A stretch of DNA of 62,416 nt, filler included, from Hausera hauseri (lineage: Eukaryota): the NCBI GenBank assembly GCA_046269625.1. It is 13 parts of 13 records of this genome, joined end to end, with 100 filler letters (N's around TTAATTAATTAA, not from the genome) between each part and the next. Parts side by side here need not be neighbours in the genome. Positions count along the whole stretch, not along the records: positions 24,388 to 28,986 come from JBJURY010511018.1; 12 more parts are not named here. One strand, given 5' to 3'. Within the stretch, counting starts at the first letter, position 1. Every line of letters begins with the position of its first letter. Below the pieces are notes generated by a model. It was not told the DNA's origin. It saw only the letters and a list, made by a program, of their open reading frames with translations, and did no database searches. This document shows positions 18,767-62,370 of this stretch, in pieces. The translations under genes were made by a program, and so were the position numbers.

Positions 18767-19235
18767 GATTCCCCAATTCGTAACGAAATCAAAGATTCCA
18801 TTAATGGGTTTTCACCGCTGAAGATGTTGAAACCGGACAAAACAGTTAGTAGTAGTACACTATTTAAACAACGGAACATTAATCTCAAATCAACTTCCAG
18901 ACACGATGACAGTCGCGCCACGTTTCTTTCATATCTATCCGATATAAAATAGAATGTGTTATTTTGTAGAATTGGTTGCGTGTCGTGTTAGGAGTCACTT
19001 TTATAATTGTTCAGATTTTTACGATATTAAATTGTTTTCAGTTAAAAAAAATAATAAAATTGTATGGAGATTGATTAAATATAATAATTGATGTTAAAGC
19101 TTTTGAATTTGAATAAAATTTTTTGTCATACATAGTTTCTGACTTCTCTAACGGAATTATTTATACACAAATTTTCTCCTAAATATCAGATTAATAACAC
19201 TATGTATCGTTCCATTTTCTCAAAGAGAAAAGAAA

Positions 19236-19696
19236 TTGTATGTGAGATCTATAAATACATGCATAATTATATTCCCGTCACAAGAATCTTCTGATACTTG
19301 GAGTTTCGCAACCCCAAAGAAAAGTGCAGTGCCGATCGGCAGCTATTATGAAATAAAATCGGATTATGAATTTACCCATACAGAAATTCCAAAAACATCT
19401 TTACAAATGAACGCCACATTAGTACATGGCTATACATGGAACAAGCATATAATTCGAGGAATTGTACCACTGGACAATAGTCAGAAGGTTGTGAATCATC
19501 TTACCTCCACGTGTGGAAATATATTTACGAATGTTGCAGCATCAAATAACATTCTGTCATTCACATTCAAAGATGATGTTGAGCAAGTTATTTTTGATAC
19601 TCAACTAGCTCGGGTATTAGGCTTTACCAAGACTGAATTCACGAACAAGGAAAGAAATAAAGGTGTGTTTCCAATTAAATTGAACAAGGCATTTAA
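19236..19696 (+). pseudogene. Polinton minor capsid (penton/PX)-like fragment, cut by the contig end
   Basis: IIFPSQESS...SDYEFTHTEI resembles LPSNSS..GxWEVALxEI; FDTQLARVLGF...GVFPIKLN resembles the LAxxLGF..PxDLN pattern. Confidence 0.55.
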
Positions 19697-23880: not shown

Positions 23881-24808
23881 CTTCGCTGTGAAGATGTCGA
23901 AATGCCCAGATATAAAGCCGATTGTTCCAGATGAAGAGAAAAAAAACAAATGGAAATTTGTTTCAAAAATGTCGTATTTATTGTACTTATACACAATTGC
24001 CCCGCAAATTTTATTTTACCAAATTTCTTATTTATAAAATGTTATTGTTCCTTCAGAAATCATAAATTATTGCATAATATTCCGGTGACACCCGAGAAAT
24101 GAACATTGACAATAGCGATAATAGCGAAGCTTTCACAAATAAACATCAATAGGAAACTGTGATCAATCTACAATATCACAAAGAGCTGAAGTAGCACAAT
24201 AATTTTTTACGTCATGCTTTATGACATAGTTGAGGAAGTTCTTTAAATATTTCAACAATAAAAATCGGTAATCAAAAAAACTTACCGNNNNNNNNNNNNN
24301 NNNNNNNNNNNNNNNNNNNNNNNNNNNNNNNTTAATTAATTAANNNNNNNNNNNNNNNNNNNNNNNNNNNNNNNNNNNNNNNNNNNNAAACCTCCTTATG
24401 CATAAAAATTATTCCATGAAAATGTACTATATAGGAATAAAATCAATATTTTGCATAAATCAACATGTGCTTTTAAAGCCCAGTAAAGCGGAAATCACTA
24501 AATCTGCAAGCGGAACTGGATAAGAAGTCATGTATTTAGAATCGGAATATGATTTTATATTTTCGACTTCGAGCTCACAAGTCGAATACTTAGCTATTCG
24601 AACTCGAAAACTCGGCCAAGCATGCCTTATTCGAAGAATCTAATGAGTTCATTCGATTCCTCATGGTCGAAAACCTTAAATTTCGCGCCGCCAGCTATTT
24701 AATTTAATTGATGCCTTAAAACAAAAGCGCATTAAAAGCAATCAATATGCGAGACAGTACGTGGTGATATAACTATATTTTTCATTATTTCCAAAACCAC
24801 TTCAACGA

Positions 24809-27800
24809 ATGGTGAGTTTTTTAATTGTGCTCCTCAAACAATTGATTGATTTTAGATGTGAAAACTTTACAGCGAATGTTTGGCTCAAATCTACGAGCCG
24901 GAAAATTGGCACAGTGTTATGAAGAAGTACTTTGGCCATATGTAAAACAGGGTTCAGTATTATATATGCCCTACATGTGAGGTGGTTGCCAAATTAATTA
25001 TGAAGACTTTTACAATGTCCATAAACAGCACCTGATTTCCTTCATCAAGATGAAAAATCAAATATTCAGTACAAATATGCCAATAACGACTTTTGTGCCA
25101 AAGGAAAATAAAAGATGCAGTTCATGTGTATGGCATATGTGCAATGCACAACCCTCAGAATTGACACAATACCATGAGGAGCTATTATGGATACAAATTC
25201 AATAGGGTCCTCTGTTATATATGCCCTCGATGTGAAGCTGTATGTGATGGAAAATACATGCATTTTTACAAAGATCTTATTGCCCATTTGACAGGCTTCA
25301 ATTTAATGCAAAAGAAAGTCTCATTTAATGAGCAGCATCCTGCTTTAGAAGCACAGCCTGCTTTGGCAGCATATCCAGCTGTACATCCTGCTTCTTCAGC
25401 AAAGCCTGATTCAAGACCAAAACGTTTATTAGAGGTAGCAGCAGATGCTCCATCAAAAGGCCAAAGAGAGCGTCCAGTTGATGCAGCTGAACTGAAGAGA
25501 AAAGTTCGCCGATACTTCATAGCAGCAGTAGGGCAGACATCGCTCCATAAATTCCTGCAATATTCAAAGGAGGAGGCAGCAGGAATTCTCAAGGACAACT
25601 TGTTGGAGCTGATAGTTCTTAAGGTGAACTTCAAATTGGAAGCCACCGTCACCAATGTCGAAGGAGAGCTGCCTAGTAGAACCTTAAGGACAAAGAACAG
25701 GCCACAACTGAAATCCTCTAACATTAAGGATTTCATTAGTGAGGAATATGCAAGGCTTATCCGCGAAGCTGAAGAAAGCCAGGACAAGAGGAGCGGTTGG
25801 ACTTTAGCAACAATAAAGGGGTTATTTGTGCATGTGCACAAGTATTCTTCCATGAGAGGTAGCTCCTACATACCGCTTCCTAAATTGATAGTTAAGAAAA
25901 AGGTATGTGTCAATGTCCATAATAATGACAACATTTGTTTCATGTATGCCATTTTATCAAAACTAGTCCAGGATCAACATAATGCTTCCTGAGTTGGCAT
26001 ATGTGACAGAGTGCAGCATACATACGACTTTAGCTGTATTTCATTCCAGCCGAGCCTAGATAAAGTCGTAAAATTTGAAAGAGTGAACAACATCTCAATC
26101 AACATCTTCGGATTGGAGGAGAACAAATTTTATCTATTATATGTGTGCAAGGAGAACTTAAAGGATCATAGGGATCTACTCCATCTAGAAGATGGGGAAA
26201 CGGGACATTTCATCTGGATTAAGAATTTTGAGCGCCTCGTAGGATCCCAAATATCCAAGCATAAATTAAGGCTGGAAATATGCAAGAGATGCTTTACTTA
26301 TTTTAATGAAGACACAGCCGCAGAAAAACTGGAGGAGCACAAGACCTACTACAATACACACTATTTCATCCGAGCAAAATTCCCCAAGGAGGATTATCTG
26401 GAATACAAGGAGTTCGAGAAGATGCAGGAAGTGTCGATTGTCACATATTGTTACTTTGAGTCCATCCTCAGCCCAGTTTACAGCTGCATCCCCAATCTAC
26501 AGCAAAGCAGTACTACAGCATACGAATACTATGAGTTATCATCATACTGCATGTATGTCAAAGGACTGGACAACGAATTCCATCTCTACAAATGTCTAAA
26601 TGCAGCAGTACATTTTATACAAAGTCTGGAACAAAATGTCCCAAACTTGAAGACATGTTGCAGCAGCATAAGGGCTACATGGTGATGCCGCAGCAAAAAA
26701 ATGTGAATGGGGCAAAGCATCAACATACTACTTATGCAAAAAGCCATTCATATGGGACAATTACAAAATCAGGGATCACTGCCATTTTACAGGCATATGC
26801 CGAGGTGCAGTGTGCAACAATGGCAACTTACCCTGCAAGACATGTACATATGTTCCCGTGGTATTCCACAATCTTAGTGAATACGATTGCCACTTCATTG
26901 TTCGAGAATTGTGTAATATTGAGGGGAACATAGATGTGATTTCAAATAGTGAAAAGTACATCACCTTCACGAAGCATGTGGACCGCATCAGACTTCGCTT
27001 CATTGATAGCTTCCGCTTTTTGAGTTCGTCACTGGACAGCCTCGTAAAGAACCTTCCAACTGATGAGCTCAAGGAGAGGAAGATGTTCTTTCCGGATACA
27101 TTTGACCTGGTGAAGCGGAAAGGAGTGTTCTTCTATGACTATATAACGTCATGGAAAGCACTGGATGAAGATGCATTACCGGCCAAGGAAAACTTCTATA
27201 GATATTTGTCATACAGTCATATTAGCGATGTTGACTACGAGCACGCCCAAAGAGTATTGCAGACCTTCCAGTGCAGGACAATAGAGGAATACAGTGATAT
27301 CTATCTCCTCACAGATGTCCTGTTGCTTACTGATGTTTTCGAAAGCTTCGGGGTTGTGACCCTTAAGATCCACAAGTTAGATCCAGCCCATTTCTTTGCA
27401 GCTCCAGGAATGATTTGGACAGCTTCACTATATGCTGCGCTATACCTCATAAGGCTCCAGATCTTGAAGGATTACAATATGGTTCTCATGATTGAGAGAG
27501 GCATCAGGGGCGGAATCTGCCAGGACATTCACAGGCACAGTGTGGCCAACAACAAATACATGGTAGATTATGATCCATCCAAGGAATCCTCATATGTATC
27601 ATACCTGGATGCCAACAATCTGTATGAATGGGCAATGAGCAACATATTGCATTGTGATAACTTTCAATGGGTGGAGCAGCCGCAAGTCCTGGATATTAAA
27701 TGTATGGATCCAAATGGAGATACGGGCTACATACTGGAGGTGGACGTGAAATACCCACATAGCATCCACACAATGCATTAGCAGCTGCCTTTTCTCCCTG

Positions 27801-28730
27801 AGAGCAAGAGGCCGCCAAATGGAAAGCATAAAAGCTGCTATGTCACTTCGAAAAAAAGGAGAGGTATGTAGCCCACTATATAAACCTCCAACAGGCCATA
27901 CAAAATGGATTCCGAGTCATCGGGATTCATCCAACTCTGCAGTTCAACCAGTCCAAATGGCTGAATCCATACATAGATCTTAATACTGAGTTGAGGGCCA
28001 ATGCCAAAAACGAGTTTGAATAGGATCAGTTCAAACTTTACAAAAACTCGGTCTTTGGCAAAACTATGGAGAACATCCGGAACAAAGAAACTCATCGCTA
28101 AGCCCAACTTTCACAGCAGCACATATGCTCAAGACATCACTTGAGTTCAGCAAGCCTATACATGTGGGCATGTCCATATTGGATCTATCCAAGATCTTGA
28201 TGTATGACTTTCATTACAACGTCATGGTCCCCACATTCAATGAGCTCCAGCTAATGTACATGGACACGGACAGTTTCATATACCTGATCCATACAGATTA
28301 TATCTTTGAAAAGTTTGCAAAATTGGCGCAGTATATGGATACCTCGGACTAGCCCAAGGATCATCCAAATTACTTAGTCGTCAACAAGAAGGTCCACGGG
28401 AAGTATAAAGATGAGGCAAATGGGACGATCATCACCCGTTTCGTTGCGGTGAGATCAAAAATATATGCCATCGATGTAAGTGGTCAAGTAAAGAAGCGGG
28501 CTATGGGAGTTCAAAGGGCTACATTAGCTAAAGACATACGCTTTGTAGATTTTGAGAGAGTGTTGCGAGAACAAACTCACATCGTCAGCGAGGTAAAGAG
28601 GATCCAGTCCCGAGAACATCAGATTGCTACGGTTGCGCTGCGCAAGAAAAGCCTTAATTGATTCAATGACAAAAGGCACATTCTTAAAGACGGAATCCAC
28701 ACACTACTTCGTGGACATGTGTCATTGTAA
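24809..28730 (+). pseudogene. polB: Polinton/Maverick protein-primed family B DNA polymerase, copy A1
   Basis: SGWTL..GSSYIPLP, CVNVHNNDNICFMYAI, EndoVII-like DHCHFTG..RGAVCNNGNL, VVFHNL..YDCHFI, FIDSFRFL, RKGVF.YDY, DVLLL.DVFE, YLDANNLY, KNSVFGKTMEN, YMDTDS, RSKIY. Confidence 0.95.
24812..24855 (+). other. 44-nt spliceosomal intron immediately after the polB ATG
   Basis: ATG|GTGAGT...TTTTAG|; removal puts the ATG in frame with the conserved Cys/His domain; same position and length in copy A2. Confidence 0.8.
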
Positions 28731-29086: not shown

Positions 29087-30085
29087 AACTCGGTGCAGTG
29101 TATCCGTGCCACTTGACGAGATATTGTTTATTCGAACCTTTGCCACGTGAACGTAGAATTTCCAGAATGCGATGTACATCGGGTTTCTTGGGCAGTACCT
29201 GCAGTTTCTGTTTGAAGAACTTACCGCGTATTTCCTCACCGTTTTCATCCTCTAAAATGTACATGACAAGTGTTTGTTTTGTGTTAACTGCCGAAATGCG
29301 GAAAACCTTGTCTCTCCAGTTCTGATTGAAATTCTTAATGAACGACGTGGTACTTATTTTTGAAATACGTACATAATAACCGATTTTATACTTGAGACGA
29401 CGTTTAGTTGGTCGTCGTCGGTTTTGATAAAGCCACATGTCCAAATCATCGATTATATCAACCGGCCGTAATCCATTGATGCCACGACGTGTCGAATGAT
29501 TGTAAGCATGAATAATATCCGGCAGTGCATCTATCCAGCGTTTGTTGACTTGCTTCGTAAAGAATTTGTTTAGGCGACCGTGCAATGTTCGATTAAATAG
29601 TTCGACTAGTGCAGCCTTGTATTGGGAAAAAACCAAGTAGTGGTTTACGCCAAACCGTTTCAAGACCGCTGCAACGCGGGCGTTGTAGAATTTCTTACCC
29701 AAATCCGTTTGCAAATGCTTCGGCTGTTGTTGTTGTATCAGTGTCTGGACAGCGTCGGCAATATCTTTACCGGATTTAGATTTCACGGCAATTGCATGTG
29801 CAAAGCGACTAAACACATAAACACATGTCAGCACGTACCTATGCCTATCGTTGATGCTGACGTAGGGAATCATTTCCATTAGATCCATTTGCCATACGTT
29901 ATTTACATTGGTAGCACGGTATGCACAAGTTGGAAACAGCCTTTTTATAGGTTTTTTAGGCTGTATGCTAACTGTTTCCCGAGCCAACATTGGGTCTCTT
30001 GACGAGTCTGTTTGACAGTCTTTGCCAGTTTGTCGACGCCAGTATACCCAATAGGATGACGCGGATTAAACCACATGTCGCCCAT
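29087..30085 (-). pseudogene. int: Polinton retroviral-type (rve) integrase with C-terminal chromodomain, copy 1
   Basis: WQMDLMEM..YVLTCV.VFSRFA, LQTDLGK.FYN, KAALVE.FNRTL, YNHS, VRISK, YLVKWHGY. Confidence 0.95.
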
Positions 30086-30238
30086 CGTTGTCGTCGGTGT
30101 TGTCTATGATGTCTTTTTTGTTTGCATTGCAGCAATGAGAACGAAACGTTAATTAAAGATTCCGTAAACTGGGACAAAATGATGAAAACCATGCACCCGT
30201 ATCGCGGAATCATGATATACTTACCGTCATTGTTTATA

Positions 30239-30562
30239 CTAAACTGCTCCAAAAATCAGTCCCCCCAGTAATGACGTGACAACCGGTAGAATTGCACCCA
30301 GGAATCCGCCATTTTGCTGGCACATGACCTCTCGTTTCAGTCGTTTACTACGAGCGTTGGCAAGGCCAGTGAGTTGTTTTCGATACTTTAGTAAATTCTG
30401 CTTTCCACTACCAATATCAGCGTGACCCACAACGATATTGTACAAAATTTCCATCACGTCGTCCACTAAAAATTGCAGGAATGATCGTAGTATGTTTTGC
30501 ATATGTCTCGCAGATGCCTTGAGCAAAGCAATAAAGTACGGCTGACTACGTTTGAATCGCAT
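30239..30562 (-). CDS. Small conserved Polinton/adintovirus protein ending in QxGG-F plus an amphipathic helix (putative virion protein)
   Basis: 107 aa: EILYNIVVG..LLKYRKQL..QQNGGFLGAILPVVTSLLGGLIFG; lies between ATPase and integrase; second copy at 45755-46053. Confidence 0.75.
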   Translation of the reverse strand: MRFKRSQPYFIALLKASARHMQNILRSFLQFLVDDVMEILYNIVVGHADIGSGKQNLLKYRKQLTGLANARSKRLKREVMCQQNGGFLGAILPVVTSLLGGLIFGAV

Positions 30563-30593
30563 TTTAGACGTATTGATGCTGAGACGTTGTTGT

Positions 30594-30755
30594 TTATAAC
30601 CGTTGCCACTGTAACGGTAACTTGCGTCTAGCTGTTGTTCGAAACACATAATTGATTAATCGCTTGACTGCAGCGGTTTGTTTTGATACACATTTCTTGC
30701 CGGACATCCACTTGGTAGGTATACGTTTAACAATAGTTTTCCGGAAATTTTTCAT
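30594..30755 (-). CDS. Small basic protein (or basic C-terminal tail of the ATPase)
   Basis: MKNFRKTIVKRIPTKWMSGKK..KRLINYV..KLPLQWQ is conserved in copy 2 (about 46090-46265); in frame with the ATPase, with CGA here where copy 2 has TGA. Confidence 0.5.
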   Translation of the reverse strand: MKNFRKTIVKRIPTKWMSGKKCVSKQTAAVKRLINYVFRTTARRKLPLQWQRL

Positions 30756-30769
30756 TTTATTACAATCAT

Positions 30770-31426
30770 GTCGTCGACTTTCAAGTTTTTTATAGACATG
30801 CGCACCTTTCTGAAGGAAAATATCTCGTCGTACACGGATGTCATCGGAATATTGTTGTGTAAAGTCAATAAACAGATATCCATGCGCTTTGTTCGTAGAA
30901 TCATGATATGCATCTATCAAGNNNNNNNNNNGGCTGTGAGGAAATGCTTGTCGTGCAGCATAATCAATCATAGTTTGATCACGTGGATTTTTGAACAAAA
31001 CCAAATAATGTACGTTTAGATTTTTTGTTCGATGCTGTCCGCCTTGATGGAACATGTCTTACGTAATGAAAACAACTGTCACACCACGGTGTCCTACAAT
31101 TGTTGTGAACAGGTTGTTGAAGTCCGATTGTTTCGCGGCTTCCTGAAATAAATCGTCAATAACAATAACGTCATGGTTGAATAATCCCTCAGACCAGTTT
31201 TCATCAAATTAATCAATTACCGTTATGGATTTTAATTTACAAAATTCCCGATGTGTCAAACCGGACTCATCATCATCACTAACACCCTGATGCCAGTAAA
31301 TGTGATTGTACCGCGGTTAATGGAACATGTCACGGTATTTCTGCAATAGTTTTCACACAAATGCGTATTGCCACTTCCACTGGGGCCTACAATCTTCAAA
31401 ATTGCATTATTCTGCAGCTTCATCAT
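30770..31426 (-). pseudogene. A32/FtsK-like genome packaging ATPase, copy 1
   Basis: IVGPSGSG(N)TH Walker A, VIVIDDL Walker B, GHRGVTVVFIT, NVHYLVLFKNPRD, HGYLFID. Confidence 0.93.
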
Positions 31427-31510
31427 AATAATACAACCTTTCCTTACATGCTTTGTTTATAATCGTGTTACACACATATATATAGCTATAGTATAAACAC
31501 TGTTTCTATA

Positions 31511-32072
31511 ATGGTAGCTAATATCAACTATCGCGGACACGTTACCGAGTGTGACATTAACACATTACCTTTTAATCAATGGAAGCCTGAGGAAGTATGT
31601 CCTCAAGTGTCCACCGGATTTTACGTGCATTATATTTTAATCGGGAAAGTGTCGTATTATGGGTTGTCGCAAACCAATCACAGCTGACAGTAACATTAAA
31701 CTACTGCCATTCGGAATTGTCATTGACCAAATCCAATCAATAACGGTAACGACTCAGTCAGACTGCCCATCAATCAATCTGTACAAATTAGCAATGGCCA
31801 CTGCTGAATGTATGTATGAACTCAAACTGTTTCCAGCACTGAGACTGACATCGTTTCGCCCACTTTGTGTCAATGTGTTTAGCAGTGGAAAATTTGTTGT
31901 ACTCGGTATTCGGACAGTGGACTATGAACCGATTAATCAAATTAAAAACCACATAAATGTTTTACTGAATCAAAATAATGTACTTTGCACAAAAACAAAC
32001 TATAAATACCATTCCCATGCTCATTCCGACATTACTGTCATGGAAGACGACAAAAACGATTCTACTCAATGA
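31511..32072 (+). pseudogene. tbp: TATA-box-binding-protein-like gene inside the Polinton contig (one frameshift, one stop)
   Basis: Repeat 1: MVANINYRG...CIIF*SGKCRIMG; repeat 2: IQSITVT...INLYKLA...MYELKLFPALRL...PLCVNVFSSGKFVVLG (TBP YEPExFPGL..IFxSGKxVxxG pattern). Confidence 0.85.
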
Positions 32073-32265
32073 TGGTGGTTGTGAGAATGATGAAAGTTCA
32101 GATTGGTCATGGTTGTTTGGCTACAAAAAAGACAATTCTAATATTAAACTGCTGGAAACGAAAACGGAACCTGTCTAACAATTAGAAAAACCTTATAATG
32201 GCAACTGTCTGGAACTTGCTCAGAAATCAGCAGCGGCAGCAGCAAAACCGACGTTAAAAAGGCAA

Positions 32266-32712
32266 ATGGCAATGATTAAAATACGTAAACGAAAATCAAA
32301 ACCGTCGTGCCAAACACAGACATTTTTACCTAAACGAATTTTTCGCAAGTATGAAGTGCATTTCCTGCAAACGCCCGTACTAATTTCATTGAATGACCCC
32401 GTGTCTCTCTGTGCACACAAGTACAGCTATCGTGCAAAATGGCTTTCGGGTGAAAATTTGGATAAACTTTCTGATGCTTTTCATCAATTAGACGTGAACT
32501 TAAAGTTGAACGAAACGACCGCGCAACAGCAATCTGTCGTTTTATTGGCCCAGAAAACGAAATTGTTTGATTTTATCGGTCGTGAAATGTCTCATGTACC
32601 CGATGATGATTTAAAGTGTCGACTGAATATTGAATTGCAAGGACGCAGGGAAAAGGCCGGTATCAAAAGCCCGATTTGGCATGTAGCTGAAGCACATTTT
32701 AATTATCAATAA
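32266..32712 (+). CDS. Hypothetical Polinton accessory protein, 148 aa, basic NLS-like N-terminus
   Basis: Open ATG ORF in the co-oriented cluster; AATAAA overlaps the stop. Confidence 0.5.
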   Translation: MAMIKIRKRKSKPSCQTQTFLPKRIFRKYEVHFLQTPVLISLNDPVSLCAHKYSYRAKWLSGENLDKLSDAFHQLDVNLKLNETTAQQQSVVLLAQKTKLFDFIGREMSHVPDDDLKCRLNIELQGRREKAGIKSPIWHVAEAHFNYQ

Positions 32713-32799
32713 ATTTTGTTTTACCGTTCTTCTTTCATTAACCCAATTAACGAGTATAAATATACATGTAATTTTAATATAGGCATAAGAATATTGATA

Positions 32800-33264
32800 A
32801 TGAATAATGTGAAGATTATTTTAACAGACGAAAATGCCTTTGTATCGAGAAGTGTTACAGCAAACAGTGCAGGCTACAATGTGTTTCACAATGTCAATAC
32901 GACAATTTCGGACAGCACAATCAAATGCATAATGATTGGGATTCGATTGGCGATTCCACCCGGTTACTACGGCCAACCTTTATCGAAAAGCGGACTGGCA
33001 AAGCTCGGACTGACGGTTGTTGGCGGTGTCATTGATTCAGACTTTCGTGGTGAAATTAAGGTGTTGCTGAAAAACAAATCCAAGGAACCGTATGCTCTTT
33101 CGAAAGGCCGCGCAATCGCACAAATCGTGTTTCTTCGATGTGAAGAGGCGGAATTCAGTGTAATGTCACCGGAACAATGGGGATTGTTTTGTGTCAATGA
33201 AGCAACACAAAATGAATGCAAAGAATTTGGCTTTGGTGATATGAACAAAATCATCTATGTTTAA
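32800..33264 (+). CDS. dut: dUTPase (trimeric type), motifs partly decayed
   Basis: SAGYNV, SKSGLA, GGVIDSDFRGEIKV, IAQIVF; motif 5 degenerate (EFGFG). Confidence 0.93.
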   Translation: MNNVKIILTDENAFVSRSVTANSAGYNVFHNVNTTISDSTIKCIMIGIRLAIPPGYYGQPLSKSGLAKLGLTVVGGVIDSDFRGEIKVLLKNKSKEPYALSKGRAIAQIVFLRCEEAEFSVMSPEQWGLFCVNEATQNECKEFGFGDMNKIIYV

Positions 33265-38461: not shown

Positions 38462-39049
38462 NNNNNNNNNNNNNNNNNNNNNNNNNNNNNNNNNNNNNNN
38501 NNNNNTTAATTAATTAANNNNNNNNNNNNNNNNNNNNNNNNNNNNNNNNNNNNNNNNNNNNTTTTAAGTAACGTAAACCGTGATCTTCAAGGGGAAGGGG
38601 GCCAAAGTCGATAAAGTTGTAAGCGTACGTAGATAGGAAATCATGTATGGAATGTCCGATCTGACGTTAGAATTCTGAATATCGGTTCACAAGTCGAATA
38701 TTCGAATAATTTAATACTCAAAAATCGAAAAAATCAGGTGTTCATATGTTGTTTTACTGTGAATTTCAAGATGATGAAGCAAAATTCAAATTTGGAGGGG
38801 CAAAAGAATTTTATGCAATTGATGCATTGAAACAAGTGTACAAATGCAGTATGTTGGCAATACAAGTGCCATATGTTGGCAACAATATGCAGTGCCGAAT
38901 TTACCCCACCATTAAAATTGTTCCTTTTTCCTTACATGCGTGTTTTGTTTTACTTCATCAATTATCAAAGTAAAATAAAAATCAATAAAAATAGTCAGTC
39001 CACTTTGACATGGCTATATATTTCATTATTTCGAAAATCACTTCAAAGA

Positions 39050-42000
39050 ATGGTGAGTTTTTTATTTGTGCTCTTCAAACTAATTGATTTGTTTAGATTT
39101 GCAAACTATACCAGGAATGTTTGGCTCAAATTTACGAGCATGAAAATTGCCATAATACGATGAAGAAATTTTATGCATCTCAACAATAGGACGGAGTATT
39201 ATATGTTCTATATGTGAGGTAGTGTGCCGTACCGGTTAAGAGGAATTTTACAATCAGTATAAACAACATCTGGATTCCTTCACAAAATCGAAGAAAGAAA
39301 TATTCAACAGTAAGACACCAATGACAAAATGTGGCTCAAAAGCAATTCAGATGTGCGGTTACTATGCTTATTGTGCATTTGCAACGCATTATACGTAACA
39401 GTGCCATGAAACGATGCAGCGGTATTATGGACACAAATACAATCGGATCAAATATTATATATATCCAGGATGCGAGACTGTATGCGGTACAGATTACATA
39501 CAGTTCTATTATAATTACAAACATCATTTGAGTGACTTCGCATCAAAGTCCAAGAAGACTATCTTAAATGCGCAACATAATCCTGCTGCATCTGCTTCAC
39601 TGTATGCTGCTGGAGCTGTTGCAGCAGCTGCAAAGCAGATTAGAGAATTGAAACGCGCGGCCGAAAATACGCAGCAGCATCAGGTGCAGCATAAAATTCT
39701 CCGCCAAAAAGCCTACGGCAGCGGCCGGTTGATGCTTCAGCATGAAAAAAGAAAAGTCCGCAGCTATGCTATTGACGCAACGGGTCAAACAACGCTTCAT
39801 GATTTTCTGGTGTACACAAAGGATGAAACAGAGAATTCTCCAGGATAACATGGCGGAGCTCAAAGCACTTAAGGTCAATATGAAACTGGAGGCCACATGC
39901 ATCAATGTTGATGGCGAAGAATCCAAAAAGGCCTTCAAGACCAAAAATAAGCAAATATTGGAAACTACCAATATAGTATAATGGCTGCATGAGGAACACA
40001 GGAAGCCGATACATGAAGCCTAGGAAATCCAGAAGAGTGGATAGACCATGGCAACCTTACAGAGATTGTTTGGGCATGTACACAAGTATTCGCACATGCA
40101 GGGCACTTCCTATATAATACCCCCTGAATGGATTAAGCAGAAACGCATGCATCAATGTCCATAATGATGACATGTGTTTTATGTATTCCATTCTATCAAA
40201 ACTCGTAAAGGATCAACATAATGTTTCACAAGTCATAGTATACCGAAACATCCAGCACAAGTGTAACTTCCAATGTATTAAGTTCCTGTTATCCTTAGAC
40301 GATGTCCAAAAATTTGGACACCAACATTTCCATCAACATCTTTTGATTGGATGATGAGGACAAAGTATATGATGCGGAATTGGAAGATCATAGTGATCTG
40401 CTCCTAGCAGACGATGGAGAAAAGAAGCATTATGTTTGAATAAAGAATTTCGAGCGTCTATTCAGGTCCCAAATTACGAAGCATACAACAAGAATCGAAA
40501 TACTCAAAAGACGTTTGTCCAATTTCGGCGGTGATACCTATGGAGAAGCTTTAAGAGCACAAGGTGTACTGCAACAACAATTATTGTATCAGGATAGAAT
40601 TTCCCAAGGAGGACTACATCGAATTTAAAGAATATGAAAAGAAGATCAAGGTCCCAATAGTCATCTATTGCTACTTTGAAGCCATATTGAGCTTAGTTCA
40701 GGTATGCAACTCCAATCTAGAACACAGCAGCACAACAGCATACCAATTTCACGAACTCTCATATTGAATGTATTCCAAAGGACTGGATAAGGAACCATTT
40801 CTATTCAGAGGCCCCAATGCTACAGTACTAATCATGAAGCGATTGGAAGACATTGCTCATAGGACTGAAGTTATGTTGCAGCAACATAAGGATGCAATGG
40901 GCATGTCGAAGAATTAAGAAGAATGGCGCAAAGCAGCAGCATGTTACTTGTGAGACAAGTCCTTCACCATAGATAATTGGAAAGTCAGGAATCATTGCCA
41001 TTTTACAGGCAAATATCAAAGCAAAGCCTGCAACAATTGTAATCTACATTGCAGAACAGCGACATTTATACCTGTAGTATTCCACAACCTCAGTTGATAT
41101 GATTCCATTTCGTAGCTCGAGAACTGAGAAACATTGAAGGAAACATTGAAGTGATTCTCAACAGTGAAAAAAAACTTTTATAAAATACGTTGGAAAAATC
41201 CGGCTTCGCTTCGTGGACACTTTCCGATTCATGTCCTTTTCACTTGACAGCTTAGTGAAGAATTTTCCTTCAGATCTTAAGGAGACGAAGCTGTTCTTTC
41301 CTAATACGTTTGATCTAGTCAAAAGGAAAGGAATGTTTCCCTATGATTACACCACATCAAGGAAAACAGCTTTGTCGGCCAAGAAAGATTTTTACAATAT
41401 CCTCTCAAACAGTGATATCAGCGATATGGACTATCAAAATGGCCAAAATGTCTGGGAGACATTCAAATGCCGAACATTAGGCGAATACAGCGATATATAT
41501 CTTCATACGGATGTACTGCTGCTGATGGATGTCTTTGAAAGCTTTCGGGATGTGACATTAGCAAGCCACAAGTTGGACCCAGCTCATTTCTTTGCCTCTC
41601 TAGAAATGAGCTGGACAGCAGTTCTGCGATATACCGGTATTAGACTACAGATCATAAAGAATTATGACATGATCATCGTGATCGAGAGAGATGTTAGAGG
41701 CGGAATATGCCAGGTCATTCACCGGTATAGTGAGGCCAGTAACAAGTATATGGTCCAGTATGATCCATCAAAAGCATCTTTATGCATCACGTACCTAGAT
41801 TCCAACAACTTATGTAGATGGGCAATGAGCCTCCCATTGCCTTATGATGACTTTAAATGGGTAAATCACCCGGAAGCCATCCTTGCTTCAGATGTAGATC
41901 CCAATGGAGATATATCCCAATGGGCTACATACTGGAGGTGGATGTTGAATATCCACATAGCATCCATACAAGGCATGAACAGCTGCCTTTCTTACCTGAG

Positions 42001-42980
42001 AGCAAGCAGCCACCTAACGGTAAACATCGAAAGCTGCTCTGCCACCTAGATAATAGGGAGAGGTATATAGTCCAATAAATCACTCTCCAGCAGGCTATTA
42101 GAAATTGACTCCGCATTACGAAGTTTCATGGGCCCTGCAGGTCAGCCAATCCAAGTAGTTGCAGCTATATATAGATTTTAATACGAAGCTGCGGGCTAAT
42201 GTCAAGAACGACTTTGATAATTATCAATTTAAGCTGTATAATAACAGCGTTTTTGACAAGACGATGGAGGACATCTGCAAGAGGATTAACATTGAGTTGG
42301 TCTGAGTGGAAGCGGGCAAAGAAGCTCATTGCCAAGCCCAACTTCCACAGCAGCATCATATATACGGAGGACTTCGTCTGCATTTATATGCTGAAAACAT
42401 CGCTTGAGACAACATGCCAATGTGTGTATGGCGATACTAGACCTGTCAAAGACCATGATGTATCATTTCCACTATGACATTGTCCCCACATTCCAGTCTA
42501 TGAAGCTCATGTATGTGTATACTGATAGCTTTATCTATTATATCCATATAAAGGATATCTTTACAGATTTTGTTCATTTGACACAAGATATGGATACATC
42601 TGACTATCCTAAGGAGCATCCGACCTATTTAATCACCAGCAAGAAGTTCCTTAGGAAATTCAAAGACGAGGTGAATGGGGCAATCGTCTAGCGATTTTTG
42701 GCGCTGCGGAGCAAAATGTATGCCCTTGATGTATGTAGCCAGATCAAAAATAGAGCCAAGGGTGTACAAAGGGCTGCATTGGTAAAGAAGATTGATGTCA
42801 GTGACTATGTGATGTTCTGCATGAGCAGACTCACAACATATCAGAGATGCGAAGGATCCAATCTAGAGCTCAACATCGAGACAGTAAAGCTGCAGAAGAG
42901 CCAGGATTGGATGGATGATAAGAGGCGCATCCTGGACGATGAAATAAGTACTCTACCTCACGGACGTGGCAATTGTAGAT
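39050..42980 (+). pseudogene. polB: Polinton pPolB, copy A2
   Basis: Colinear with copy A1: RKGMFPYDY, DVLLLMDVFE, YLDSNNL, YVYTDS, LRSKMY, RAKGVQ; many lesions. Confidence 0.95.
39053..39096 (+). other. 44-nt intron after the polB ATG
   Basis: ATG|GTGAGT...CTAAT (branch-like)...TTTAG|ATT TGC AAA gives MICKLYQECLAQIYE. Confidence 0.85.
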
Positions 42981-43241
42981 ATGATGTAATTACTTTGTTC
43001 TTGTTATATCTTTGTTGTATTGTTAATAAGTCTTGCTTCAAAATATCTTGTTGCCTTCTTGATCAAGTAATGTGGGATATAGGATAAGGCCAAGTAAAAC
43101 TAATTAAGTACTATATAGGCCAATTAAAACTATACAAGTAAATATATTAATCAATAAATGAATAAATTTGAAATTCAACTTTAAAAAATCAACGCAGTGC
43201 GTCATTTACTTGCATTAATCTGCCATTATTTCAAAATCAAT

Positions 43242-43459
43242 ATGGCTGAAGCATGTGCAATATGTCGGGAAAAAATGAACGGCAATAATGCAAAATGTCA
43301 TGCCCAATATGCAGAACAAAATGTGAATATCGTCATCCGGGATGCAGAAGATCAATGTCTGTGTCGTGGGTAGGGTGTCTAATAAAGACCCTATATGATC
43401 TCTGGCCTGACACTGAAAGTGAATATGACAATGATGAAACCATTGTAATTTTTGTTTAA
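43242..43459 (+). pseudogene. RING-finger remnant (central part deleted) downstream of polB A2
   Basis: MAEACAICREKM /frameshift/ KMSCPICRTK...DTESEYDNDETIVIFV*; segment absent at the same position in copy A1. Confidence 0.55.
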
Positions 43460-48120: not shown

Positions 48121-51100
48121 AACTCTTATTTCGCTCCAGCCACTTAAGCTTCTCATTACTGCATGATAAAGCGACTTTTGTATTGGTCACCATATATAGC
48201 TGGTGCTCAATCGATCGGATGATCGTTTGTGACACAACAGCCTTTTATTGTCCTTATTCTTCTTCATAGATACGGCGATAAGCACAGTAGTTTATTTCCG
48301 TCTGGGTCAATTGAACTCCTTTGGCGCGCATTTTCGGTTTAATATCAGTTAAAAGGCTATAACATTTTGGCCATAGAAATATCCATTTTCGATACTGAAC
48401 CCGACCTTCACTTTCATCCTTGAAGCAGCCTATTTTGTTGGTGATCGCGCTGCTGTACAACGGATTATCCGGTGGACAGTTGCACGTGACCAGTAATCCA
48501 TCTGACTGCATTTTCTGCAGTAGCAGTTGGCGATTGACTTTTTTCAGCCTCAGGAAAAAACTGTCTGTGTCACCGGCAATTATACTAATGTCACAGCCGT
48601 GAAACATTTGCCGGTAACGTACCAAATCACGATACTGTAGCTCATACATCCGCAACTTACTCAGGTCCAATACCACTTGTCCGATGTAAATTGACCGGTC
48701 CAGAACGACTCTTCTCTGTTTAAAGGCATGGAAACCAATCCATCGGCAATGTGCATTGACCGCCGAAACTGCGCCTTACTCGTGTATGTAACCAATTGCT
48801 TTATGCTATTGCATAGGCGTACATTGAGCAGCTTTTCAGATTCTCCACTGCTTTTCCATACAGGGAATTGTTTTCCAGCTTGTAGTAATCCTTTTCGAAC
48901 TTTGTGCAAGCTGCGGCTTGTTTTGCCGAATTTTCATCTATGTACGCCTTGAATATGGAAGCCTGAGCAAATCGGATTGCACGATGCAGCTGTGTGACGC
49001 GTACACCGAGCTGCATGTAGAACTGTAGCAGACGCCAATGGATCACGTAATTCAGCTTCGGTTCATGCGTCATAAGGAGTTTCTTCACCTTTGAGCCGCC
49101 GAGCGGACATTGGCTGATTGTTGCGAAAGGCAATTGGTCCAAAGCGTCATGTAACTTATCCGGTACCATGAGATCAACTTCCATCAGTTAGCCGAGTGAG
49201 CTGTTTTCTGCAGTGTCTGCTTTCGGTAAATTTTCCAATATTGCCTTCAGATCTTGCTTGTCCGTTAACCATTCAAATGAACAGTACGGCAAGGATTGCG
49301 AAAGCGCCCAGACGTATAGGTTATTAATGTCCATGTACAACAGTGATGTGGTGTTATCATCACTGGTTATGTAGTGCTTGTTGACAAATATCATGCCGCC
49401 ACGAATACCAACATCAAACAGTCGGCACATTTCTGGGTCCTGCGACAGTTCAATGTCCCGGTTCGGTGATATCATAGCCGATGCCCAACTCATTCCCGGT
49501 ATGGAGTAAAAGTTGAGAAGCTCCAGCCTATCTTCCGCCAACGCCTTAGTCCGAAATGTCTGAAACACATTGGCCAGCAAGTACGCGTCCAGTTTCAGAT
49601 ACTGGAGCATGTAATCCAATAGGCTTCTGCAGCCGAGCTCTGACCAAGATTCCTGTGCTCTGTTATATTCATCTTCTGTTATACTGGACCACCGCGGTGG
49701 CAATTCCGCTGTTGTCTGAAGCCGCTCGTACGATACAGTAAAGTCATACGGGAATATGCCTTTGCTACGTGCAATATGCATCGGAAACTGCGTTGATGTT
49801 AACAGCATATCTGGCAAGGCACTCACCAGCTTTGCTAGAGACTCATTGAGGAACTGTAATAAGTCAAGGAATCGCACATAGAACCGGTTTATGCGTGCCG
49901 ACAGAGACAGGTATTTCTCCGTCGTTGTTGGAATTATGGACAGTTCCCAGTGTGGAAATCCATTAATGCCCATTTCAGAATATGGTGACAATCATAACCC
50001 CCGTAGTTATGAAATATCACGAGCAAGAATGGCCGCACATGCAGTGCTAAATTGCATAATTTGCATGCTGCTCCCGGGTATCGTCCGGTAAAGTGGTCGA
50101 GATCAGGTACGAGCAGTTCCTTTTTATCGAATGCTAATATTTTGTGGCACAGATAGCATTTATCTGTGACTGCAAACGTAAGGCCTTCGTCTTTGTCTGT
50201 CCAGATCAAAGAACTAATGCTGTTGTTACTGTATCACGGTGCAATTTCCGCTTCTACTATTGCCTCCAACTGGTGCAGGAAATCACGTACACAGTTCCAT
50301 CCGTGCAAAACGTAATACTGCGGTTGTCCTGTGGTTTTTATTGGTACTAGCAACATACAGACGGCGATTGGAATGTGATTTTGGTCGCAAACGCTGTGCT
50401 GCGGTAGAATTACTTCAATATAGGCATAAGCCACATATGCCGGACTGTCCGTTTTTGACCAGTCACTGAATCTCAGCTACTTTTTGAGGGACATGACGTA
50501 CATTGTTGTTCCCGATACGTTTCGTCTGCATAGTGCCACGCGTTTTTCCCATGTCGCTTCTAATCTGAAGCCATGCAAACATATAGGGCACCATTTGCAG
50601 CGTATTTGTTTTTGGATGAACTGGTCATGGTCCATGTTAAGCAGTCTGTACAAATTTGTTACGGCCACGTAACGAAATTATTCTGCCTGCTCCAACTGCA
50701 ACAGATATATTTGCGTCCATTCGGGTTCGGACTTCGATAGATTATGTCAGTGTGAAGATTCTTGTAAATTTTCTCTTCTGCCGGTATCATTATTACTGAG
50801 TTGAGCCGGAAAACGTTCATTGACAGTGTCGGATTACGCCGTTCATAAACCGGAATGGTTTTGAGTTTCAACGGCATCCAGCTTTCATCAAAGTTCAATT
50901 GACAAAATACTGACGATATTGTTTTGAACGATTTGCACGATTTCTGGGCACTTCGTCATATTTAAACATGGCTAAAATACTTCAAAGAAAACAGTATTCG
51001 TCGCTATTATTTTCTACATTGACTACAATTTTAGAGTGCTTTAGCGTTGCAGGTGTCGGTATAAATGATCTTCCCGACAAGTAAATCATGCCACTCGACT

Positions 51101-52082
51101 ATGTAATGACAAAGCCGAGAGTGACAATGTTTACAATTCGCCATCCACTACCTTTTCCGTGTATTTGGAGATTTTCTCCTCGAACTTCTCGCCAATCTCA
51201 GCGATAAAATCCTCGGTATATGGTATAGCCCTATGTGGCAGGTACTATTGCAGTTGTAATGGTGTTGGAATTTGCCAACTCCAAATTCCAACAGGTTTCG
51301 CACAATGGATGGAACATGTCTCAATTGCGTTGTTGTTGTTGTTGTTGACGCTGACATGTTCACTTTTATATCCACGTACGATTTTTTCAGATCGTATATG
51401 ACAGTAATGCGTGGTGCCTCTCCGTCTTGCTCCTGTTCCTGCTGCTGCTACTCCTTCGGCTGTTCTTGATTTCTGTTGTTTTGCAAGTATTAGTCAAGAC
51501 TTGTTGATGCCTGACGTTTCCTACTTGTTGAGGGAATACTGCTGCTGCAGTTGCTTTTTGCTGCGTCCAATAATATTTGACTTTTTGACAGCTAAAACTG
51601 GTTTAAGTGGTCATGGTGCTGATTATATAATTGTTCACAGTTGACTTGATCATCAGCTATAGAACAACCGGGACATACTTAGGCCCGTTTACTGTACACC
51701 GTTGTGGTGCCATAGTATTGGTCCATTGCACTATGACAACAACCAACTTCAAGCACTTTATTAGTACAGTAACTTGGGTATGTGGGGCAATGCACAAAAA
51801 TCATCTTCTTGGATCGCGTGAACGGACCGACGTGATGCTTGTACATCTCATAAAAGTGGGCATACAGACATGTGTTTTGAATAAAACACATGGGACAGAG
51901 ATACGCGTCCTTGGCCACTGAATAATATTTGGCCATTTCTTTGTGGCATTGTCCACCCTCATGTATGCGGGCGACGCAATACATGGAGTATTGCGAACAT
52001 TTCTGAATGATAAACAAATTAAACTAAAAATAAATAAAAATGTATCAATTATAAATAAATGAATTTAATTACAATACACCAT
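48121..52082 (-). pseudogene. polB: Polinton pPolB, lineage B, copy B1 (C-terminus cut by the contig end)
   Basis: DHFTGRYPGAACKLCNL, IFHNYGGYDCHHI, SKGIFPYDF, YLKLDAYLL, YMDINNLY, NNSLYGKAVEN, AGDTDS, PKCYS, RAKGV. Confidence 0.95.
52003..52079 (-). other. 77-nt intron after the polB B1 ATG
   Basis: ATG|GTGTAT...T-rich...TTCAG|AAA TGT gives MKCSQYSMYCVARIHE. Confidence 0.7.
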
Positions 52083-52161
52083 AACTTATTCCCCTTACTG
52101 TAGTCTCAGACGTCGCCAAAATAGGCTATAAACTTTTATCAACATTACTACACTAAGTCAA

Positions 52162-58319: not shown

Positions 58320-61300
58320 AATGGGTCACTTTGATCTGTCTATATCATCAGCACCGAATTCATGCGTGTGCGTGCTTTATTCCGAACGCCAATGTCCGCA
58401 CGCCCAACGCTTGTTTCGCCCCCCCCCACATACGCTTAGCATCATTGCATGATAAAGCGACATTTGTATTGGTCACCGTATACAGCTGGTGCTCAATCGA
58501 TCGGATGATCGTTTAAGATACAACAGCCTTTGATTGTCCTGCGTCTCTTCCTTCATAGATACTGCAATAATCACCGTAGTTTATTTTCGTCTGGGCCAAC
58601 TGAACTCCTTTGGTGCGAATTTTCAGCGCACCATCAGTTTAAAGGCTATAACAATTTAGCCGTAGAAATATCCATTCCCGATACTGAACCCGACCTTCAC
58701 TTTCATCCTTAGAGCAGCCAATTTTGTTCGTGATAGCGTTGCTGTACAATGGACGATTCTGCGGGTAATTGGACGTATCCAATAATCCATCTGCCATAAT
58801 TTGCCGCAGTAGTTGTTCGCGATTGACGTTTTCCAGTTCCAAGTAAAAACTATCTGTGCCACCGGCAATCATATTGGTCCTGCATCCGCCGCCGTCGCCA
58901 AACATTTGCCGGTAACATGCCAAATCGCTATACTGCAGCCCATACATCCGCAACTTGATCAGATCCAATACCACTTGTCCTATATAATGTGGCCGGTCCA
59001 GTACGACTTCTTCCCTGTGTAAAAGCACGACAACTAATCCATCAGCAATGTGCATTGATCGCCTGAACTGCGCCTTGCTCGTGTACGTGACCAACCGCTT
59101 TTCGCTATTGCACAGGCGTACACTGAGCCGCTTTTTAAGATTCTCTACTGTTTTTTCGTAGAGCGAATTGTTTTTCAGTCTTTTCAAACTTCGTACAAGC
59201 TGAAGCTCGCTTTTCCGAATTCCGAATGATATACGACTTGAATATCGGAGCCTGTGCGAATCGGATTGCGCGACGCGTATACCAAACTGCATGTAAAATT
59301 GCAACAGACGCCAATGAACAATATAGTTTTGTTTATGTTCATGCAACATAAGCAGCTTCTTCACCTTCGAGCCTGGTAAACATTGGCTGATTGGTGCGAT
59401 CGGCCGTTCATCCAGAAAGTCATGCAACTCATTTGAAACCACGAGGTCAACTTCCATCAGGTATCCGATTGAGCTATTTTCTGCCGTGTTTGCTCTCGGC
59501 ACATTTTCCAGTATTGCGTCCAGGTCCTGTTTGTCGACTACCCATTCGAATGAACCGTACGGCAATAGTTGTGAAAGTGCCCAGTCGTACAGATTATTAA
59601 TGTCGATATACAACAGTGATGTGGTATCATCACTGGTTACGTGATGCGTGTTGACAAATATCATGCCGCCACGAATACCAACATCAAACATTCGGTACAT
59701 TTCCGGATCTTGCGATAGCTCGATATCCCCATCCAGTGACATCAGAGCTGATGCCCAACTCATTCCGGGTATTGAGTAAAAGTTGAGTGGCTCCAGCCAA
59801 TCTTCTACCAATTCTTTACCTCGAAATGTCTGAAGCACATCGGCTAACAGGTACACATCCAATTTCAGATAGTGAAGCATGTCCTCCAACAGGTTTATGC
59901 AGCCGAGCTGTGACAAAAATGACTATGCTTTGTGATATTCTTCTTCTGTAATACCGGGCTATTGCGGTGGTAATTCATCTGTCGTCTGGAGCCGCTCGTA
60001 CGATATCACAAAGTCATACGGGAATATGCCTTTGCTACGCGCAATATGTACAGAGAACTGAGTCATTGTTAGCGGCACATCTGGCAAGGCACTCACCAGC
60101 TTTGCTAGAGATTCATTGAGAAATTGCAATGAATCGAGGAATGGTATTTGGAACCGGTTTATACAAGCAGACAGTGGCAGATATTTCTCCATCGTAGTCG
60201 GAATTATGGATAATTCCCAGTGCGGAAATCCGTTTATTGCCCATTTAAAAATATGGTGGCAATCATAACCCCTGAAGTTATGAAAAACCACCGGTAGGAA
60301 TGGCCGCACTCGCCTTGCCAAATGGAATGATTACATGCGGCTCCGAGATATCGACCGGTAAAATGATCGTAATCCGGTACGAGCCGGTCCTGTGCATCAA
60401 ACGGTAATATTTTGTGGCACAGGTAACATTCACCTGTGACTGTAAATGTCAGGAGTTCATCTTCATCAGTCCAGATCAGAGGTTTGGTGCTATTATCGCA
60501 ATACAACGGTGCGATTTCCGTTTTCACTATGTTTGCAACTGCTGCAAGAAATCGCTTTTATTGGGACAACCAACATATCGACGGAAATTGGAACATGTTT
60601 TCGGTCATATATGTTGTGCCGTGGTAAGATAGCTTCGATATCGGCATATACTACATATGCTGGATTACCTGTTTTTCAGCAATCAGTGAATCTGAGTTCC
60701 TTTTTGACGGGAATGACATACATTGTGGTTCCCGACGAATTTTGTCTGCACAGAGTCACATGTTTCTCCAATGTTGTTTCTGATCTGAATCCACGCAGAT
60801 ATACAGGATACCATTTACACTGTATCCGTTTTTTGAAGTGGTCATGTTCCATGTTCAGCAGTCTGTCCAGATTTGTCACTGCAACGTAATGATACTTTTC
60901 CTTTAGCTCCAATAGCAACAAATTTATTGAACGGCCATTTGGGTTTCGACTATGATAGATTATATCCACATGGGTATTCTTATAGATTTCTTCATCTATC
61001 GATATTTCAACTATTGAGTTGTACCGGAAAACGTTGACTGACAGCGTCAGATTACGCAGTTCGAAGGCCGGTATGGTTTTTAGTTTCATCGGCATCCAGC
61101 TTTCATCGAAATCCAAGTCGGAAAAATACTGTCGATACTGATTTGGACGATTAGCATGTTTTCTGCCATCGTTTTCATATTTTAATACCGCCAGAATACT
61201 GTAAAGAAAACAATATTCATCGTTAATATTTTTTACATTTACTACCGCCACAGACTGCTTCAGAGCTGCAGGTGTCGGTATGAATGATCATCCAAAAGAA

Positions 61301-62370
61301 TATATTATGTCACTCGGTTTTGTATGATAAAGCCGAAGGTGACAATTTTTATAATTCGCCATTCACTATCCTTTTCGATATAATTGGCGATTTCCTCTTC
61401 GAGCTTTTCGCCTACGTCGGCAATAAAATCGTTGGAATACGGTTCGGCTTGATGTGATAGGTACCATTGTTTTCTGTCATCTTCCAAATTTTCAAATTCT
61501 ACCCGTGCATAATATTGCACTTTGCAGTTATGTTGGAATTTCTTCACTTCGGATTCCAACCGGTGGCGCACACTGGACAGTACATGTCTCCATTGCGTTG
61601 TTGTTATTTTCGCCATGTTCGCTTTTATGCCCACGAACGATCTGTTCAGATCATACTTGACCGTAATAATGGGAATATTGGTTTCCTGTTGCCCCTATTC
61701 TTGTTGTTGTTGATGATGATGCTATTCCTGCTTCTCCTATTGCTGCTGATGCTCGGTACTGTTTCTGACTAAGTCGTCAAGACTTGTTGAGGCCTGACGT
61801 TTCCCACTGGTTGTTGAGGGGATGCTACTGTTGCTCCTGCTTTTAGTTGAGTCCATAAATAGTTGTTTTTTAGACCGCTTAAACTGGTCTAAGTAGTACT
61901 TGTTCTGGTTATAAAATTGTTCATAGTTGATTTCAACAACTATTGAACAACTGGGACAAACGTAGGCCCATTTACTGTGCAGCGTTGTGGTGCAATAGTA
62001 CTGCTCCATTGTACAATAAAAACCATTAACGTTATGCACTTTATTATTGCATTAGTATGAATATGTGGAGCAATGCTCAACCATCATCTTAGACTGAGTA
62101 AACGATCCAAGATGATGCTTGTGCACCTCATAAAAAGTAGGCGTACGGGCCTTGGAAAGAAACATCACACGTTGGACACATACGTGTCCGTGCCAATTGT
62201 GCAATATTTCGCCATCTCTTGATGGCGCTGGTCCTCCACATGTATGCGCAAGACGCAAATCATGGGATATTGCTTACATTTCTAAATTTAAACAAATTAA
62301 AGTAAATGTTAACTTTAAAATGAAAACAATAAATACAATTATGAATAATATAATATATTGATATACACTA
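58320..62370 (-). pseudogene. polB: Polinton pPolB, lineage B, copy B2
   Basis: VVNVKNINDEYCFLYSIL, DHFTGRYLGAAC, VVFHNFRGYDCHHI, YIDINNLY, NNSLYEKTVEN, GGTDS; colinear with B1. Confidence 0.95.
62282..62368 (-). other. 87-nt intron at the same site in polB B2 (ATG eroded)
   Basis: TTA|GTGTAT...TTTAG|AAA TGT AAG CAA TAT (KCKQYPMICVLRIH); same donor hexamer and acceptor context as B1. Confidence 0.65.

Follow-up and report, generated by a model that had tools for sequence, protein, structure and literature searches.

A candidate spliceosomal intron at the start codon of decayed Polinton-type polymerase genes

In a genome assembly of Hausera hauseri (GCA_046269625.1), the decayed gene of a Polinton-type protein-primed family B polymerase (pPolB) is headed by an ATG that runs directly into a GT; the segment so begun ends in AG after 44 nucleotides, and the conserved N-terminal reading frame opens behind it. 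The question raised by this arrangement is whether the segment is a spliceosomal intron placed between the first and second codons of the gene. The initial annotation read it in this way and noted that Polinton genes are generally described as intron-poor, which is indeed the picture given by the accessible portions of three sources: intact vertebrate Mavericks have no introns (PMC8097293), core genes are intronless and introns occur in cargo genes (10.1101/2022.07.12.499685), and a large survey of endogenous viruses assumed them to be intron-free and hence used a prokaryotic gene caller (PMC10120064).

Four polymerase genes and their 5' ends

The window, that is the whole stretch of 62,416 nucleotides analysed, consists of 13 separate contigs of 4.0-5.7 kb each, joined through 12 spacers of the form N44-TTAATTAATTAA-N44 (e.g. 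5711-5810), and neighbouring segments in it are not genomic neighbours. Decayed pPolB genes lie on four of the 13 contigs, one on each, and form two lineages, A (copies A1 and A2, 67% nucleotide identity) and B (B1 and B2, 74%). All four match PF03175, with the A2 match below the curated cutoff, and all four are dead, being broken by 5-14 stops per copy inside the aligned stretches and by several frame switches. The polymerase cores of lineage B are ~30% identical to those of A and ~35% identical to anything else retrieved. The nearest named relatives of A1 are the pPolBs of Rhodnius and Halyomorpha, at 48-53% identity, an insect kinship that suggests an arthropod host for the elements. Cassettes of an ATPase and an integrase with a chromodomain sit on other contigs of the window than pPolB, and linkage of pPolB to integrase and ATPase on one element was seen only in a locus from another assembly (L011, below). 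The features of lineage A are as follows.

24768..24808, plus strand: TATA-like box (TATA at 24768 and 24774) and short 5' leader of A1, a putative RNA polymerase II core promoter
24809..24811, plus strand: A1 start codon, the sole coding part of the candidate exon 1
24812..24855, plus strand: A1 candidate phase-0 intron, 44 nt, GTGAGT...TTGAT...TTTTAG, 39/44 identical to that of A2
24856..25323, plus strand: start of A1 exon 2, two tandem Cys/His repeats, broken by stops and frame switches
25324..28721, plus strand: rest of the decayed A1 pPolB gene (PF03175 match; tblastn with P0022 and P0026)
39015..39049, plus strand: A2 TATA-like box and short 5' leader
39050..39052, plus strand: A2 start codon
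39053..39096, plus strand: A2 candidate phase-0 intron, 44 nt, GTGAGT...CTAAT...TTTAG
39097..42964, plus strand: A2 exon 2, Cys/His repeats and decayed pPolB, first in-frame Met at codon 22

Between A1 and A2 the 44 nt that end with the ATG are identical at 37 of 44 positions without gaps, and ATGGTGAGT occurs twice in the window, at these two copies. Their donor, GTGAGT, is of the U1 consensus type; that of B1 and B2 is a weak GTGTAT. Common to all four copies are an acceptor TAG or CAG, a T content of 45-57% and a branch-like CTAAT, TTGAT or TTAAT, the A of which lies 7-17 nt from the end of the segment (14 nt for the CTAAT of A2). The case is weaker in lineage B, which is laid out as follows.

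52097..52132, minus strand: B1 TTTATA (52132) and CAGT (52100), spaced as a TATA/initiator pair, a putative promoter
52080..52082, minus strand: B1 start codon
52003..52079, minus strand: B1 candidate phase-0 intron, 77 nt, 14% GC, GTGTAT...TTAAT...TTCAG
48121..52002, minus strand: B1 exon 2, Cys/His repeats and decayed pPolB, as far as the contig end
62282..62368, minus strand: B2 AT-rich segment, 87 nt, acceptor and branch-like end common to B1, donor position uncertain
58381..62281, minus strand: B2 exon 2, Cys/His repeats and decayed pPolB

The CAGT of B1, ~30 nt below TTTATA, is presumably the transcription start, going by the consensus of arthropod promoters. A stronger donor, GTAAGG at 52098, competes with the one drawn from 19 nt upstream; no ATG precedes it, it overlaps the GT of CAGT, and its use would place the B intron in the 5'UTR. 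In B2, none of the nine GTs within the 135 nt left on the contig has an ATG before it; 48 nt of contig remain upstream of the proposed donor, and the start-codon pattern may be hidden by decay or by this contig end. MAFFT sets the ATG|GT of B1 opposite ATA|TT in B2; when the two GTGTA donors are instead paired in a local alignment, 139 of 500 shuffles score as high. In the acceptor region, the last 25 nt agree at 21 of 25 positions (84%), a level equalled by 45 of 153 coding windows. On such signals a start-codon intron in B1 is plausible, at somewhat better than even odds, and the donor of B2 as drawn is doubtful. The full ATG|GT..AG pattern is present in three of the four copies, B2 showing the acceptor only, so that the original statement that all four share it stands for A1, A2 and B1 and falls for B2. 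Separately, a divergent frame at 52132-52434 on the plus strand begins ~50-100 nt from the B1 pPolB start, and the two may have a promoter region in common.

Reading frame, protein relatives and constraint

The conserved Cys position of the first Cys/His repeat falls, in every copy, on the second codon after the AG, and in every copy a stop in the polymerase frame lies at most 8 codons upstream of the AG; these in-frame stops exclude read-through and -1 frameshifting into exon 2. Removal of the segment restores the conserved reading frame in A1, A2 and B1, and its retention does not. The spliced product had been given as M-x-C in the frame of the N-terminal domain, with the Cys codon as TGA in A1, and its coordinates and frames are confirmed, B2 lacking the ATG. 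Exon 2 of A1 opens with ATG as codon 1, followed by that TGA stop at the conserved Cys position as codon 2; in A2, B1 and B2 the first in-frame Met of exon 2 comes after the conserved Cys, at codons 22, 7 and 7.

Without splicing, the ATG opens a frame of 37 codons in A1 and A2, ending at the same TGA in both, and this shared frame could be taken to mean that the unspliced RNA was itself translated, into a functional 37-residue peptide or through a -1 slip of the ribosome on the U-rich stretch that follows the ATG, given that 44 and 77 are both 2 mod 3 and a -1 shift reaches the polymerase frame. We consider this very improbable. In A1, A2 and B1 the shifted frame is closed by stops ahead of exon 2, one of them in A being the TAG of the acceptor; the TGA common to A1 and A2 lies within the codons for a conserved Met-Lys in the polymerase frame; the unspliced frame of B1 has only 5 codons; and no fold better than that of shuffled sequence was found in the A1, A2 and B1 segments, nor a conserved one (z -1.7 to +0.4). 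The segments of the four copies, at 44-87 nt, also fall short of the hundreds of nucleotides of a group I or II catalytic fold, no part of the window matches Rfam, and the only near-identical intron copies in the window are the two orthologous ones of lineage A.

By chance, a YAG with ATG|GT ~35-100 nt upstream occurs at 217 of 119,572 window positions (~0.2%) and the strict version with ATG|GTRAG at 9 of 119,572 (0.008%), both counts including the candidate sites. When the upstream regions of the four copies were shuffled, the pattern appeared in 11, 7, 13 and 3 of 5000 cases.

The Cys/His repeat, which from its sequence is probably zinc-binding, spans ~65-70 residues and occurs in 1-3 copies, at 51500-52002 and in homologous parts of the window as well as in P0001-P0014; its fusion partner is either pPolB or a C2H2-finger protein that has no polymerase. 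A search with the repeat among 1.84 billion protein representatives gave 15 matches, from which P0015 was dropped as a repetitive chance match. A Met stands 2-3 residues before the first Cys in five of the 14 homologues, with exactly M-x-C in two (P0007 and P0011), and this placement fixes the junction position independently of the window. The M-x-C relatives, known from protein alone, may derive from spliced transcripts or from intronless genes. P0016, a cluster mate of P0007, and P0006 continue into sequence that matches the N-terminal region of the window pPolBs.

Except for separate C2H2-type fingers, neither the 14 homologues nor P0016 have a Pfam match above cutoff, and the repeat itself has no match in Pfam, PDB or BFVD. 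Its AlphaFold model is of middling confidence (mean pLDDT 61.5), and structural matches to it reach a Z of 2.0 at best, with none at E <= 0.001, from which no new fold is implied. Word-index protein searches, one with 5 candidates and one with 1497 (the latter among proteins of 371-2000 aa), gave no longer relatives of the repeat and no full-length intact pPolB that carries it; the best hit of a profile scan of 215 further proteins was no better than E = 0.07, an Atlas search returned only unnamed leads at 0.77, and P0016 had no match in GTDB, plasmids or phages. PF02945 is present in relatives and is reminiscent of the HNH insert of pPolB2. Zinc-binding domains at the N-terminus of pPolB are probably annotated too rarely. 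The RefSeq model P0142 (XP_073979165.1) begins with 61 Cys/His-rich residues where P0031, 99% identical to it, has 11 Phe/Tyr-rich ones instead; to judge from the two sequences this contrast fits a missed exon, and it could be a difference between copies. Phe/Leu/Tyr-rich N-termini in P0003, P0004 and P0031 hint at an intron tail read through, and a comparison of P0156 with P0028 gives a further hint, one Rhodnius model carrying an extra Met ahead of M-E-C.

A1 and A2 diverged under purifying selection, with core identity at codon positions 1, 2 and 3 of 656, 716 and 480 of 889 (0.74, 0.81 and 0.54). Their introns, 39/44 identical with gaps and 34/44 ungapped owing to a small shift near the 3' end, reach in the gapped comparison a level found in only 1 of 90 coding windows, far above that of third codon positions (binomial p about 1e-6) and no different from that of second positions (p = 0.13). 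The conserved block continues across the TATA-like region (61/68 nt), so the identity of the introns may owe something to promoter function, or to elements having recently exchanged their 5' regions. Taken together, the splice signals, the frame, the constraint and the N-termini of relatives make a strong case, and the start-codon intron of lineage A is very probably real.

The introns of A and B do not resemble each other beyond chance (123 of 500 shuffles score as high). In quick trees, A groups with hemipteran-named and unnamed near relatives (SH-aLRT 96), several of which begin with C2H2-like fingers instead of the Cys/His repeat, and B forms a very long branch. The tree leaves A and B apart, and a topology that unites them is not rejected by the AU test (p = 0.37). 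With introns so dissimilar, one old intron is a possible origin beside transfer of a promoter-plus-repeat module and repeated gain at ATG|G. The annotation had called the feature old and selected: the dissimilar introns, the distant cores and the AU result do not bear out the former, and the latter finds support in the constrained intron of lineage A only, the acceptor region of lineage B being not unusually conserved.

Polinton loci from other assemblies and known systems

A scan of GTDB gave 40 pPolB loci (L001-L040), all in prokaryotic genome bins into which eukaryotic or viral contigs had most likely been sorted in error. The Cys/His repeat was found in none of the 40. Among the 12 in which the frame is open for 400 codons or more ahead of the core match, the suggested scan of related pPolB loci for ATG|GT recovered no strong case: ATG|GTRAG stood at the pPolB start in 0/12 and a loose ATG|GT with a poor donor in 2/12. 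Most of these loci have their own ATG near the frame start, and a start-codon intron is therefore not general in pPolB.

Introns of other placement do occur. The 5' end of L011 (3340-3762) has a TATA box, an ATG and a 94-nt exon encoding a C2H2 finger above the Pfam cutoff, followed by an intron of 67 nt (GTAAGT..CTAAT..TTACAG), a 63-nt exon and a second intron of 157 nt (GTAAGT..TTTATAG), and these exons are in frame with an unbroken pPolB frame of 1112 codons. An ORF caller would begin this pPolB at codon 40, which, like the comparison of P0031 with P0142, agrees with the earlier expectation that ORF callers would miss such exons. At 1-2283 the same locus carries an ATPase, a small GG-F protein and an integrase in opposite orientation to pPolB. 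In L012, a segment of ~200 nt (1053-1254; GTAAGT..TTTTACAG) ends 3 nt before the ATG of a C2H2-led pPolB and, by its signals, is likely a 5'UTR intron; a similar donor/acceptor pair, weaker than that of L012, lies near 3280-3410 in L010.

These loci bear on two ways in which the window copies might be read differently. The intron could be real but confined to the 5'UTR, with translation beginning in exon 2, at the A1 ATG after the AG or at Met 7 in B, the stronger upstream donor being used in B1. This is how L012, and more weakly L010, appear to be built; exon 2 of A1 does open with ATG, no ATG precedes the GTAAGG of B1, and ATG|GT is absent from B2. It is an unlikely reading nonetheless: the first codon after the AG is ATT in A2 and AAA in both B copies, the relatives have their Met two residues before the Cys and not one, a start at Met 7 or Met 22 would lose a Cys that recurs in the internal repeats, and the ATG upstream in lineage A, if not joined to exon 2, would act as an upstream start in the wrong frame.

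It is slightly less likely still that there is no intron, the segment being conserved promoter or leader DNA with an incidental GT and AG and translation starting at an ATG or near-cognate codon after the AG. Conservation through the TATA region does exceed what splice signals need, 44 nt is short for an intron (no host intron for a comparison of length was found in the window), and the core genes of nematode as well as vertebrate Mavericks are reported intronless. Against this stand the perfect donor right after the ATG and its agreement in phase with an acceptor that precedes the conserved Cys by one codon, the low chance expectation per site given above, lower still for the strict donor, for a pattern found in two lineages unrelated in sequence there, the absence of a usable start after the AG in three of the four copies, and the clear introns of L011.

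We therefore prefer a start-codon intron spliced by the host in active ancestors of these copies, an explanation that, read from sequence as a whole, we hold at a probability of roughly 0.75. Host RNA polymerase II would have transcribed pPolB in the nucleus from a promoter of the TATA type, with a very short first exon of roughly 10-25 nt, depending on where transcription began, that ended in ATG. Excision of the short phase-0 intron by the host U2 spliceosome would then have placed the ATG directly before exon 2, so that the protein began with M-x-C, contained the whole of the first Cys/His repeat and went on into the polymerase. Full-length polymerase would have needed splicing, because unspliced RNA is out of frame and stops after 37 codons in A or 5 in B1; the dependence of the replicase on host splicing that had been proposed would thus follow if the intron is real. 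As to its effect on expression, the likeliest benefit would be ordinary intron-aided expression and not a switch, and the intron may be one case of a wider tendency to 5'-end introns in zinc-finger-led pPolB genes. Taken further, and at distinctly less than even odds, 5'-end spliceosomal introns could be common and overlooked in the zinc-module-led pPolBs of animal Polintons, the start-codon intron could be a hinge that moved promoter and N-terminal module between distant lineages, and its conservation in lineage A could reflect a host-splicing gate on the replicase; the hinge is suggested by the fact that A and B share module and intron position at so low a core identity.

Start-codon introns of host genes are phase-0 introns between codons 1 and 2, at an ATG|G proto-splice site, and have been proposed to swap 5'UTR modules (PMC1626468, Nielsen and Wernersson 2006, in the parts of the paper that treat them). 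The candidates in A1, A2 and B1 are like these in phase and position. The host examples described there are mostly in short conserved proteins, e.g. ribosomal ones, whereas the gene here is a ~1300-codon replicase of a virus-like mobile element, and the 44-nt intron of lineage A is shorter than the 53-nt cutoff applied to arthropods in PMC1626468, a cutoff that may not be the host's. The adenovirus E2B genes are likewise replication proteins of a related virus group that depend on splicing, but their first exon is kilobases away on the upstream side, within a transcription unit of complex alternative splicing, and here a single minimal intron stands beside the promoter. Mastadenovirus pol probably also takes its ATG from the upstream pTP exon. 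For HAdV-37 the pTP gene is listed with a first coding exon of 9 nt, and pol as unspliced in the same table (PMC2397415); in turkey haemorrhagic enteritis virus, the mRNAs of pTP and pol have upstream exons in common, and splicing creates the start codon of IVa2 (PMC11304566), so far as the relevant parts of these two papers go.

Polintons, Mavericks and adintoviruses share the PF03175 polymerase with the window copies, and insect pPolBs reach up to 53% identity; Polinton and Maverick core genes have been reported intronless, whereas the window copies carry a candidate 5' intron, and near Polinton relatives have C2H2 fingers at the N-terminus where the window copies have the tandem Cys/His repeat. 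The sections on virophage elements consulted in PMC8547959 describe no introns. Introns inside polinton-like elements are known from protists, in the form of introners (PMC12166617) and group I introns (PMC12220804); these, as characterised in the relevant passages, are recent mobile or self-splicing sequences, in contrast to the short, non-folding window segments, which have no Rfam match and a fixed, constrained position. Spliceosomal introns in pPolB go unmentioned in the available portions of 10.1101/2023.08.22.554363, PMC8502044, 10.1101/2024.03.25.586562, PMC11296320, PMC8363768 and 10.1101/2024.01.15.575659. Among the papers turned up by literature searches, chiefly on Polinton introns and adenovirus first exons, no title or abstract opening reports a conserved spliceosomal intron in an animal Polinton polymerase, though the original Polinton papers and Repbase may annotate such exons. 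Both the intron type and a splicing-dependent viral replication gene are known, and their presence in Polinton polymerases appears to be new.

If true, a conserved replicase intron would make the transcription of these elements a nuclear process run by host machinery, in parallel to the replication genes of adenoviruses, and such nuclear transcription would set them apart from the polinton-like viruses thought to use the cytoplasmic factories of large viruses. A read across the spliced junction cannot derive from genomic DNA and would provide a simple assay for whether and where Polintons are expressed. If 5' introns are common, many annotated pPolBs would lack their true N-terminus.

Other features of the window

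Decayed genes for an ATPase, a small GG-F protein and a chromodomain integrase lie at 29087-31450 and 44581-46840 on the minus strand, in the same order as in L011, and frames for a TBP-like protein and a dUTPase (31641-33264), possibly cargo, stand beside this cassette. A 56-nt GTAAGT..CCCAG segment upstream of the integrase on contigs 7 and 10 (30224-30169 and 45738-45683, minus strand) was considered as a second intron; it is likely coincidental, as it joins no ATG to the integrase frame and overlaps a short frame common to both copies. Just after the small GG-F gene, AGTATAAACA occurs at ~30240 and ~45755 (minus strand) and twice in L011, at ~1268 and ~1105 (minus strand), and is possibly an element-specific promoter motif. 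The idea that contigs 6 and 7, and 9 and 10, are halves of the same elements is unsupported, given identities of 80% vs 67% and the separators between them. A frame at 19152-19696, at the end of contig 4, has no Pfam match and may resemble a Polinton minor capsid protein. On contig 3, a frame of 470 codons (12467-13879) opens with a partial RING finger; downstream of A2, at 43200-43370, there is a small remnant that is rich in Cys and RING-like.
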